This document shows, piece after piece, positions 6,888-53,910 of a stretch of DNA of 64,000 nucleotides. Within the stretch, counting starts at the first letter, position 1; the number at the start of each line of letters is the position of its first letter. The stretch spans positions 199,392,001-199,456,000 of the forward strand of contig OZ024743.1 of the NCBI GenBank assembly GCA_964016885.1, given 5' to 3'. The notes below the pieces were generated by a model. It saw nothing but the letters and a program-made list of their open reading frames with translations, did not search any database and had not been told where the DNA came from. A program made the translations under genes and the position numbers. Source of the DNA: Eledone cirrhosa. Lineage: Eukaryota.

Positions 6888-7094
6888 ATATATATATATA
6901 TATATATATATATATATATATATGTATTTTGAGTATATGTATTTTGAGTATATGTTGGTTGTATAGCAACACCTCAGTATGCAAATTGGAGCACTCGAGA
7001 AAGTGCGCAAGTTGGTTCGGTTATTCCGGAGTAATGTAAAATAAAATAAAATAAAATAAATAAGTCAAATGTTTAAAATTTGGCATCGTTTATT

Positions 7095-7149
7095 ACTGCT
7101 ATATATATTTCGGTTACAGCCATCTTTGGCTGAGACCTCTTCAGGCAGT
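7095..7149 (-). ncRNA. Minimal type-I hammerhead ribozyme (H1), left arm of foldback 7037-7440
   Basis: Minus: actgc-CTGAAGA-GGTCTCAGCCA aaga TGGCTGTAACC-GAAA-TATATA-TA-gcagt; perfect 5-bp stem I, intact core, palindromic stem III. Confidence 0.88.
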
Positions 7150-7330
7150 CCGAATTAGTGTGGTAGAGACGAGTACACATGCTGTTGAGGTGTTTAACTT
7201 TGTCAATACTCTGATATGATTCCAGTTCCTCAGTGAAATAACAACCCAACCAGGAACTGGGCATATCAGAGTATTGACAAAGTTAAACACCTCAACAACA
7301 TGTGTACTCGTCTCTACCACACTAATTCGG

Positions 7331-7385
7331 ACTGCCTGAAGAGGTCACAGCCAAAGATGGCTGTAACCGAAATATATATAACAGT
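7331..7385 (+). ncRNA. Minimal type-I hammerhead ribozyme (H1), right arm of foldback 7037-7440
   Basis: actgc-CTGAAGA-GGTCACAGCCA aaga TGGCTGTAACC-GAAA-TATATA-TA-acagt; first stem I pair mismatched. Confidence 0.85.
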
Positions 7386-7470
7386 AACAAACGAAGCCAA
7401 ATTTAAACATTTGACTTATTTATTTTATTTTATTTTATTTTATATATATATGTATATATATATATATATT

Positions 7471-7652
7471 GTCGAAGCCCTTTTGTCAAATATGCTGTGA
7501 CCTCCTCAGTGACTAGGTTTTTATTTTGGGTCTCTCCTTTGTTCTGTCCTACACCATCTTGTTTTTGTGTGTAGGACAGAACAAAGGAGAGACCCAAAAT
7601 AAAAACCTAGTCACTGAGGAGGTCACAGAATGTTTGACAAAAGAGCTTCGAC
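7471..7652. mobile_element. Short head-to-head foldback of Penelope-related 3' ends with two hammerhead-like motifs (7471-7513 -, 7610-7652 +)
   Basis: gtca-CTGAGGA-GGTCA...TGAC-AAAA-GAGCTT-cgac (GAAA mutated to AAAA); taggacagaacaaa shared with the Penelope 3' UTR at 13261; (TA)n on both sides. Confidence 0.75.
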
Positions 7653-7701
7653 AATATATATATATATATATATATATACATATATACATATATATATCTA
7701 T

Positions 7702-51281: not shown

Positions 51282-52417
51282 AAATTGGTGAAAATAGCTA
51301 GCTTGTCAAGACTGAATGGGCCCACCCTGAATTATATTTTACTAAGCAGGAGAAAAGAAACCAGGAGTGGGTTTTTTTACTGCCCTTGATACAACAGAAT
51401 AATCTGGGGCTTTCATATGGGGTCTTCCTTGAAAATATTCTAAGGTGTCATTCTTTGCCATTGGGGAACTTTAGTTATTTGGCTGTTATTTTACATATAT
51501 GTGTAGGCATACTTTTACAATCAGTGCACAGAATAAATTAATGTATGCACATGTTGGATAAAATCTAATTGTTTCTACTTTAGGCACAATGCCAGCAATT
51601 AACCAGTGCATTACTGGTACTGTTGGATAAAATATAATAACAAAAAATTATACTTTTACATTTTGTGTGCACATACATTTTTGCCATAAAACAATTGCAT
51701 AAGTTTTTTTTATCACATTCACTATGAAAATATTAAAGAAAATATATTTAACAATATTTTGTGTATAATAAAACATTGACTTTTCGTAAATATTAATATG
51801 GCCGGAAAAAGTAGTTAGCTAGACTTATTGTAATTACTGTATAAATTGCATTTATAATGTTCACATTTTAAGTTAAGTTAATTTGAATGTGATCTTTGTG
51901 CTCTACTGGTGTAGATCATAAAACTACACCAGAAGTCAAGTCAATATTATAGAGATTAAAGGATAATGTTTGTTTGTCTGTTTGTGTGTTTTTTTCAAGA
52001 AACATTGCATATTATACATGAATGTAGAGTGAAAGTATTTATACTCCAGGCTCAGCTGGCTTTGGCTGGCAGCACCTGAAATGGACCTTTCTCTATCCAG
52101 GGTTATAGACTTTGAAATGTTAGGTTCGTTTTTTGCATATGTTAAGAAGGGAAGAGAGCTTGGGTGCAAGACTAGAAATCTTACCTCCATTAATCAAAAT
52201 TACCACAGAAATGTCAAACAGATACATGGCATGAGAGCAAAAAGAACTAAGAATAAGAAGACTGTTTGTTGTTAATTAAGATTCTGATAATTTACTTTAC
52301 AAAATGTTCAATAATAAGACCTTCCTTTCTTTCGTGTCTTATGAAAATAGTTTTTGTATATTTTAAAATGTAGAATCCTTAATAGGCTCTGTCCCTTAAG
52401 TATTAACTCTGAGTTTC

Positions 52418-52457
52418 TCAGAGTTCTTTTGTCGCACAACTGTGACATCATCAGTGA
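52418..52457 (-). ncRNA. Degenerate hammerhead (Penelope pLTR type)
   Basis: Minus: tca-CTGATGA-T-GTCACA gttg TGCGAC-AAAA-GAAC-TC-tga; GAAA mutated to AAAA at a CpG. Confidence 0.6.
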
Positions 52458-52744
52458 TGTTGTTATGTTTCCTCCTGTTGTATTCCTGTAATGTTTTCTT
52501 TATATTGTAAATATTTAAGGAGCCTATTGTCTTGTTATCAAAACATTCTATTATTGATGTTGAGCTCCAGGTACACTCTTATTAAGAAGATATATCAAAG
52601 TTATTACTGCCATGTCTAGACTCCATTGTCATTCCTATTTTTAAAGATAAGATGGAGAGTATAGAGAATTGACAAAGGCAACATGAAACAGTCAACAATG
52701 GGAGGAAGATGGTGGAAAACTTGAAAATGGTTTATGATCAAGAA

Positions 52745-52997
52745 AATGAAATGAGAAAATGAAATGAAAAAAATGAAACAAAATTGACAGCTAACACCTG
52801 TGCTGGTTTAGCAGGCCTCCTGTGAAGTTGCATCGCATGGGAGGGTTTTCACTTGTTTTAATGATAAGGGCCACAAATGTATCATGAAAATGAATGAGAA
52901 ATGAAGTGTCTTGCTCAGGAATACATTGTGCCACCCATTGCAGGAATCAAACTCAAGATCTTTTGGTATTAGATCTAACACTAACCACGAGGCTATG
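52745..52997 (-). mobile_element. Old SINE group B-like copy with (TTTCA)n-ending tail
   Basis: aagtgtcttgctcagga CORE-like segment; tail homologous to 30045-30190. Confidence 0.6.
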
Positions 52998-53464
52998 CAT
53001 ATTCACAGAATGACAAATAAGATGGATAGAGGATTTTAAATTTTAGGGTCCAAACCATGCCGGCATGGAAAAGCCAACGTAAATGCGATGATGATGATGA
53101 TGATGATTGTCTCTAGTCTATGGAACTTTATTGATCGAGGGTGTGATATGAGCGAGATTTGGTGGTAATTTCTATTAGGGGGGAATAACTATAGATATAC
53201 TTTCTCATTTGTTCAATATCCAAATATTTTATTTTAGAATCATGATTGTTGTTAGAGAAATGGTTTTATGATATATCTAATTTTGATTTTATCGGCTTTT
53301 GTAAATAAAAAAGAAAATAACAATAAGGATATGCATGTGTCTATGTATATACTCATATATGTATGTGTATACGTTTGTATATATATATATGAATGTATGT
53401 ATATATATATATATATATATATATAAAGTACAGAACAATCAAAACTATGTTAAATACATTTTAT

Positions 53465-53511
53465 TGCTGACAATTGTTTCTTCCAAACAGCCGTTTGGAA
53501 TCATCAGAACA
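53465..53511 (-). ncRNA. Minimal type-I hammerhead ribozyme (family H5), fully intact
   Basis: Minus: tgtt-CTGATGA-TTCCAAAC ggct GTTTGGAA-GAAA-CAATTG-TC-agca; perfect 8-bp stem II, GUC site, palindromic stem III; inverted partial copy at 53611-53670. Confidence 0.9.
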
Positions 53512-53910
53512 TTGGCAAAGCTTAAACATTAAATTCCTATTCTACAGAACAATCATAAAGATATGTTGATATTGTTACTATCAATAGTGTCATATTCAAA
53601 GAGAGTGAAGTTGGAAGAAACGATTGTCAGCAATAAAATGTATTAAACATAGTTTTGATTGTTCTATACTGTATACTCTTGCTCTGTAAGACATCTGATG
53701 TATTTACAATGAGCTATTTTTCATACTGGTAATAAGGTGTTAAAAAATAAAAAATACTGACCTTTCCTGTTTATAATTATATATAGTTTATATATAAGTA
53801 TAAATAATATTATTATTATATATATATATATATATATGTGTGTATGTTTATATATATATATGTGTGTGTATGTATATACATAGGTGTGTGTGTGTGTGTG
53901 TGTCTGTCTG

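Follow-up and report, generated by a model that had tools for sequence, protein, structure and literature searches.

We examined a 64,000-nucleotide (nt) stretch of the Eledone cirrhosa genome (the window; GenBank assembly GCA_964016885.1, contig OZ024743.1, positions 199,392,001 to 199,456,000 of the forward strand), in which eight loci carry inverted pairs built of pieces of Penelope-like retroelements (PLEs), with a GIY-YIG open reading frame (ORF) and hammerhead motifs. The source genome comprises 3.0 Gb and is rich in (TA)n. In genome searches, each locus fell into a repeat family for which hundreds to thousands of candidate members were found; we named these families A (locus 7037), E (7471), B (7702), G (16870), D (17550), C (32010), H (36083) and F (53426), and coordinates are positions within the window. 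The two arms of a pair almost always end at two different fixed sites of the element and appear to share one template source; we consider twin priming on one RNA, with joining of the two complementary DNAs (cDNAs), their probable though by no means certain origin. The features are as follows, with reverse transcriptase abbreviated RT and pseudo-long terminal repeat pLTR.

6943..7218, minus strand: family A left arm, a PLE 3′ end with hammerhead core 7138-7144 and a long tail at 6943-7036 (long start site).
7214..7440, plus strand: family A right arm, the 5′-longer one, ending at the short site ahead of (TA)n; hammerhead core at 7336.
7468..7655, both strands: family E palindrome, a relative of family B, with hammerhead cores at 7509 (minus) and 7614 (plus); both arms end at an internal TA run just past the ribozyme.
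7702..11398, minus strand: family B long arm, a 5′-truncated PLE ORF (RT with YVDD; GIY-YIG at 8100-8510) with a pLTR hammerhead core at 7894; short site.
11395..13549, plus strand: family B short arm, the 3′ part of the ORF, with a pLTR hammerhead core at 13312 and a 55-nt tail at 13495-13549 (long site).
16873..16996, both strands: family G palindrome, old (81%); left arm at the short site, right-arm tail remnant at ~17372-17411 beyond an inserted LINE (long interspersed nuclear element) fragment.
17444..17895, both strands: family D palindrome with hammerhead cores at 17684 (minus) and 17744 (plus); the family's longer end is on the left arm only (to 17444).
32011-32552, minus strand: family C left arm with a 103-nt tail and a hammerhead-like core at 32207; the whole palindrome spans 32011..33007.
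32555-32613, minus strand: family C central repeated tail piece.
32616-33007, plus strand: family C right arm with a hammerhead-like core at 32951; stops 38 nt before the usual short site.
36083-36421, minus strand: family H left arm, a pLTR that ends at the short site, its hammerhead core at 36329.
36421-36778, plus strand: family H right arm, the ORF end plus 3′ untranslated region, with a 39-nt overlap with the left arm.
53424..53806, both strands: family F pair; left arm (minus) with core at 53507 and the short site, right arm (plus) from ~53611 with its tail at 53674-53806.

A sequence-only reading had described eight inverted pairs. Self-BLAST and alignments recovered inverted arms at 7034-7445 (92%), 7441-7682 (91%), 7702-9817/11395-13494 (97%), 16860-17007 (81%), 17444-17970 (79%), 32152-33007 (~99%) and 53422-53675 (~62-nt arms), and these seven are true palindromes of PLE pieces. 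The eighth, 36083-36780, inverts adjacent parts of one element and includes a short duplication, its arms overlapping by just 39 nt; on the right it passes into Helitron-like DNA instead of (TA)n. The boundaries first drawn were too narrow at four loci, missing the tail of one arm (6943-7036, ~17372-17411, 17444-17549 and 53674-53806). With these tails included, a longer end is present on one arm only at six of the eight loci (A, B, G, D, C and F). The exceptions are family E, trimmed on both arms, likely by later insertions on either side, and family H, whose right arm ends internally. The arms overlap by 5 nt at 7214-7218 in family A, and the family B junction shows a 4-nt microhomology at 11395-11398.

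Hammerhead cores at seven loci and, at 7702-13549, the ORF confirmed the proposed polarity, left arm minus and right arm plus. Locus 16870-16996 has no more than the 3′ half of a possible ribozyme, and polarity there is based on the ends of family G. The hammerhead-like cores of family C have U at 3 and A at 8, a pairing-preserving change from the usual C3-G8. As an argument, eight of eight was weakened by selection, since the window holds other palindromes, neither of them a PLE head-to-head pair (37475-37608 and 60609-60827); the bias itself persists in an unselected count. Exact-pattern searches of the genome returned 1782 matches for family A and 3516 for family B, and the first 100 listed of each were used for orientation. 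Among neighbors within 6 kb, the ratio of head-to-head to tail-to-tail copies was 11:1 in A and 15:1 in B (pooled 26:2, binomial p 3e-6; 15:2 for family B at 10 kb), so the head-to-head bias is real in two families. Double-arm copies amounted to 11 per 100 listed matches in A and 15 in B, the family with an imperfect stem III palindrome.

In family B, (TA)n flanked 29/34 rows for the short end and 33/38 for the long end, and 7 of the 10 rows without it had been misfiled by the search pattern. A 13-nt target duplication surrounds one pair with unlike ends (locus L224); inside (TA)n, duplications are unreadable. In the window, A, E and B ends lie in a nested pile within a single (TA)n stretch (6448-7700 together with 13549-13593), a layout compatible with new copies having repeatedly entered TA runs that earlier ones had made or brought along.

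Several observations identify the elements. Family B has a single ORF with RT plus, at the C-terminus, a GIY-YIG endonuclease, interrupted in the window copy by stops and frameshifts. Its match to PF01541 (E 2e-4, 21.8 bits) lies slightly below the 22.6 cut-off, a fuller copy gave a weak RVT_1 match (E 0.004), and YVDD and DKS motifs are present in the translations. In most of the 39 near full-length family-B loci an upstream partial copy stands in seamless tandem, forming a pLTR. A C-x4-C-x2-C motif precedes GIY-YIG; such a motif is reported for Neptune and Nematis and not for Poseidon (PMC8557442; here and below, literature statements refer to the accessible parts of the papers), and it hints at the former groups. 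The ORF also contains a long Asn/Thr/His-rich stretch before the RT (window 10780-11060; L184, L198), resembling the N-rich inserts of rotifer Penelopes (PMC3846280). In families A, E and H, for which the link to an ORF was read, sequence upstream in longer copies resembles a GIY-YIG C-terminus by eye, and the 40-aa window piece of family H had no Pfam match; families C, D, F and G were not traced to an ORF. In our own pattern scan, 7 of 8 loci had a hammerhead core with pairing in stems II and I, a minimal type I motif and candidate ribozyme. There was no hammerhead among the Rfam matches listed (150 of 152), which were uninformative: sub-threshold microRNA-like matches to hairpins and TA runs, and one weak tRNA.

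Every family examined has one short and one long 3′ end. Measured from the ribozyme cut, the sites lie at +54..61 and +148..152 in A, +158 and +213 in B, and +55 and +158 in C, the long site being 55-100 nt beyond the short one in these scored families. Families D to H were read by eye only, with 9-30 loci each; two end sites were found in A, B, C, E, F, G and H, and those of B lie within the start of the ORF (~24 and ~79 nt inside). In 62 of 64 scorable pairs from three families, the two arms ended at different sites: 27/27 in A (24 overlapping and 3 with an inverted tail piece only), 28/30 in B and 7/7 in C. No pair was short+short, and two were long+long (L197 and L215). L012 (+40) and L064 (+188) are off-site and were kept as short and long, respectively. 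Left out were duplicates of one locus (L008, L020, L036, L038, L056, L058, L129, L131, L134, L150), L019 (a copy of L018), L200, the family-C copy of the window (short arm ending at +17), and loci whose partner end was out of reach or interrupted (L074, L075, L079, L088, L192, L204, L210, L212, L217). Tail folding gave hairpins in A and C and a weak fold in B; it had no shuffle control and was not used.

Subfamily haplotypes exist in families A and B, and variants shared by the two arms support a common template source. Within pairs, diagnostic sites were discordant at 5/159 (A) and 18/250 (B), compared with 40% and 41% for arms from different loci. Rare variants were shared at 3.4 per kb in A against 0.15 in the control, and at 1.39 against 0.058 in B, an excess of ~23x in the two families alike. 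Direct tandem copies in the same family-B insertions behaved like inverted arms, with discordance of 5/211, 1.36 shared rare variants per kb, and a divergence of 2.0% against 2.15%, which argues against extra homogenization or special conversion between inverted arms. In the window, the inner 1.7 kb of 7702-13549 is nearly identical between arms and has shared private variants, with 7 differences beyond the junction.

The type of 3′ end was independent of arm length. The 5′-longer arm of family A was long-ended in 10 pairs, short-ended in 9 and equal in 5, and the main arm of near full-length family-B pairs was short-ended in 13 and long-ended in 6. Approximately half of the family-A pairs are not nested, the short-ended arm being the longer one so that neither arm contains the other. 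Most arms overlap by 20-2000 nt, and non-overlapping pairs occur within the same families (L005, L044, L052, L124). The earlier contrast with L1 twin priming, that arms here overlap, was overdrawn, given these four loci and 36083-36780.

Junctions showed overlaps of 1-8 nt (microhomology) or insertions of 5-26 nt. Among insertion-free junctions, 12/17 in B and 6/7 in A overlapped by at least 2 nt (random expectation 14% and 17%), and insertions were present in 4/21 (8-26 nt) and 5/12, respectively. The only recurrent junction of family A is a hot spot at a small palindrome near -168. Similar marks of joined cDNAs are left at L1 inversion junctions (PMC2912911, PMC11702581), and the pattern matches the trace expected when two 3′ cDNA flaps are joined. 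Two other origins of the palindromes were considered and rejected: whole copying from a palindromic master, as all family-B junctions differ, and a natural 27-nt inverted repeat at the center of 7702-13549, as family copies show a 4-nt overlap there.

The mechanism we favor can be outlined as follows. The element nuclease likely cuts both strands within (TA)n, and each 3′ end likely primes reverse transcription, via a few A/T bases, at one of two start sites of the same RNA. Both cDNAs would extend toward the 5′ end of the element and halt at unrelated places. If one RNA molecule serves both primers, occupation of one start site would leave only the other for the second primer, and this would explain why like ends almost never pair. 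A single RNA can serve both only if strands are displaced or the template is circular or multimeric: the second enzyme may displace the first cDNA, or may read circular or multimeric RNA, giving overlapping arms. Circular PLE RNA has been proposed (PMC4209133). Host microhomology-mediated end joining would then close the center. Two parts of the sequence-only reading are retained here, namely that both break ends are likely primed, as indicated by the fact that either arm may be 5′-longer and by the un-nested family-A pairs, and that two cDNAs are joined, each family-B junction being distinct. A stronger form, in which PLEs employ obligate two-site twin priming on one RNA, with one site per target strand and strand displacement, is put forward only tentatively.

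A number of observations weigh against this interpretation. Only 6/24 family-A pairs have a shared rare variant, and L021 alone contributes about half of these variants. Several family-B pairs have discordant haplotype blocks, and the pLTRs of 7702-13549 represent two haplotypes that differ at 14 sites, indicating that a second template sometimes takes part in family B. Of the two long+long pairs, L197 is discordant at 9/12 subfamily sites, and L215, with a mirrored flank, is a later duplication. Gene conversion, or the prevalence of a single subfamily at any one time, could likewise produce shared variants, and one RNA and two RNAs of one source locus are not separable by sequence. The microhomology measure uses the furthest supported extension and is biased upward, and the junction was unmeasurable in 11/23 family-A and 4/25 family-B cases. 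Long-ended arms show no clear pile-up at the short site (two cases, L044 and L124), although blocking on one RNA might lead to one, and the element PAc showed no difference in start site between strands in vitro (PMC11167929). When 11250-11560, which includes the junction at 11395-11398, was compared with four public runs, likely from other individuals or species, both halves were present as family sequence and no record spanned the junction.

Among other explanations, an unlikely one, yet the strongest of them, is that the two primers are served by separate RNAs from the same source locus or transcript, which protein or hammerhead stem III holds together as an asymmetric dimer, one RNA being primed at the short site and its partner at the long one. 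It would account for arms that overlap by up to 2 kb without strand displacement and for the discordant blocks in family B; moreover, the PAc protein is a predicted dimer (PMC11167929), and dimeric action has been proposed for minimal PLE hammerheads (PMC4209133). However, it needs one extra rule against use of the same site (0 short+short and 2 long+long of 64) and another to exclude partners from other loci, given discordance of 3-7%. The imperfect stem III palindrome of family B also argues against it, pairs being as common there as in A. The earlier suggestion that hammerhead dimers might deliver two RNAs together receives no support here; ribozyme cleavage is dispensable for insertion in vitro (PMC11167929). 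The sequence-only reading had gone further in giving each break end its own RNA copy; drawn from a pool, such copies would yield like ends in about half of the pairs and discordance near 40%. Since independent choice gives unlike ends in at most about half of pairs, the observed 62/64 does not support free drawing from the cellular pool, and this rule together with haplotype concordance excludes free drawing, or two adjacent separate insertions, for the bulk of pairs. We regard that account as the least probable of all, and two freely drawn RNAs as likely a minor route: L197, long+long and discordant, fits it, and joined distinct RT products have been reported for L1 (PMC11702581).

A hairpin, in which one cDNA (or antisense RNA; PMC3846280) folds back to copy itself, after which the nuclease cuts the open end in staggered fashion at the short and long sites, is quite improbable in our estimate. 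It predicts arms identical at birth and central microhomology, agrees with the family-A hot spot near -168, and corresponds to the self-priming and nuclease-made tails favored by the published authors (PMC3846280, PMC8557442). Yet the spacer would be bound to the arm made first, so that a tail on a fixed arm is expected, in contrast to the 10:9 (A) and 6:13 (B) seen; simple fold-back fails because either arm may be the 5′-longer one. In addition, the non-overlapping L005, L044, L052 and L124 cannot be mutual copies, and later in vitro work identified both sites as RT start sites (PMC11167929). Very little weight can be given to later genomic fold-back duplication at (TA)n breaks or to assembly artefacts. 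Mirrors centered on (TA)n do occur (window 37475-37608; L048, L223), L215 has its mirrored flank, and no independent record crosses 11395-11398. Known mirrors, however, are (TA)n-centered and tail-to-tail, and such duplication would copy the flank and give like ends. The arms differ by 0.4-20%, have unlike ends at fixed sites and meet at distinct junctions, which chimeric reads would not produce.

The (TA)n-centered palindromes form a second class, mirroring 35-110 nt of flank (37475-37608; 7620-7655 versus 13560-13590; L048 and L223). They likely result from hairpin self-priming at a (TA)n break and give the rare tail-to-tail PLE pairs. At 37475-37608 the mirrored flank is the 3′ end of a Helitron-like element whose translation at 36780-37150 looks helicase-like by eye; beside this palindrome a perfect 157-nt inverted repeat (37607-37763 / 38052-38208) flanks TA-rich DNA. 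The palindrome at 60609-60827 (96%, ~100-nt arms, no central (TA)n) is made from a fragment of an abundant short repeat also found at 1824-2010 and 14109-14334. LINEs are represented by RTE-like copies at 33090-34958 and 39157-42553, which are tail-to-tail, 92-97% identical, and encode endonuclease, RT and a PHD finger (open frame of 1012 aa at 39515-42553; older relative at 53989-57061), and by L1/Tx1-like copies at 21095-26226 and 44507-50205, with ORF1 and ORF2 and 76% alike. An L1/Tx1-like fragment (~17000-17370) interrupts the family-G tail. A long (GGT/CAT)-type triplet array at 2480-3660, with Gly/His-rich open frames in several frames, is probably a simple repeat.

The elements and their structures are already known. 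Head-to-head insertions with a one-sided tail were described for endonuclease-containing PLEs by Arkhipova et al. 2013 (PMC3846280) and Craig et al. 2021 (PMC8557442), and the pairs reported here share with them a 5′-truncated inverted copy at the 5′ end, predominance of the head-to-head arrangement, partial tandems, a tail often at one end only, microsatellite targets, (TA)n among them, and an N-rich ORF stretch. Tails are longer here, at 55 (B), ~95 (A), 103 (C) and ~133 nt (F), compared with 30-40 nt in the published elements. In the accessible parts of both papers the tail is optional and inversions arise via self-priming or nuclease resolution; those parts contain neither the one-source test nor a near-obligate pairing of short with long ends that is independent of arm length. 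Our literature search, in which older subscription papers and supplements fell outside the scope, found no paper stating the short+long rule or twin priming for PLEs, and the available portions of 10.64898/2026.07.22.740005 and PMC13282606 contained nothing on either; to the extent of that search, the rule and the one-source test have not appeared in print.

The origin of tandem and inverted PLE structures was named an open task (PMC8557442), and the short+long rule and the one-source test make it testable in an existing in vitro system (PMC11167929), while the exact matches for A and B provide a large natural data set. In addition, PLE palindromes can pass for miniature inverted-repeat transposable elements or microRNA hairpins. 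If obligate two-site twin priming holds, it would yield the one-sided tail, the inverted arms and, by loss of the second cDNA, solo copies, and two-ended priming would be the normal PLE route and not an accident as in L1.

Two known systems are closest to this scheme. PAc, a Poseidon element of the green anole, Anolis (Frangieh et al. 2024), has two internal RT start sites that delimit its tail (PMC11167929). Like family B, it has both sites inside the start of the ORF; its target is AT-rich, with both strands cut and extended. The accessible text of the paper draws no connection between these start sites and the paired arms of inverted insertions, and the cysteine motif of family B is unlike that of Poseidon, the group of PAc. 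L1 twin priming resembles our scheme in that both break ends prime one RNA, cDNAs are joined by microhomology, and the product is head-to-head (PMC2912911, PMC11702581). In L1, however, the second primer uses a variable internal site beside the end of the first cDNA, with deletions or duplications of 1-10 bp (PMC2912911, PMC11702581), whereas both sites of the PLE pairs are fixed, with 55-130 nt between them, and overlaps of hundreds of bases between the arms are usual. The PLE pairs thus work like twin priming, but not in its L1 form.

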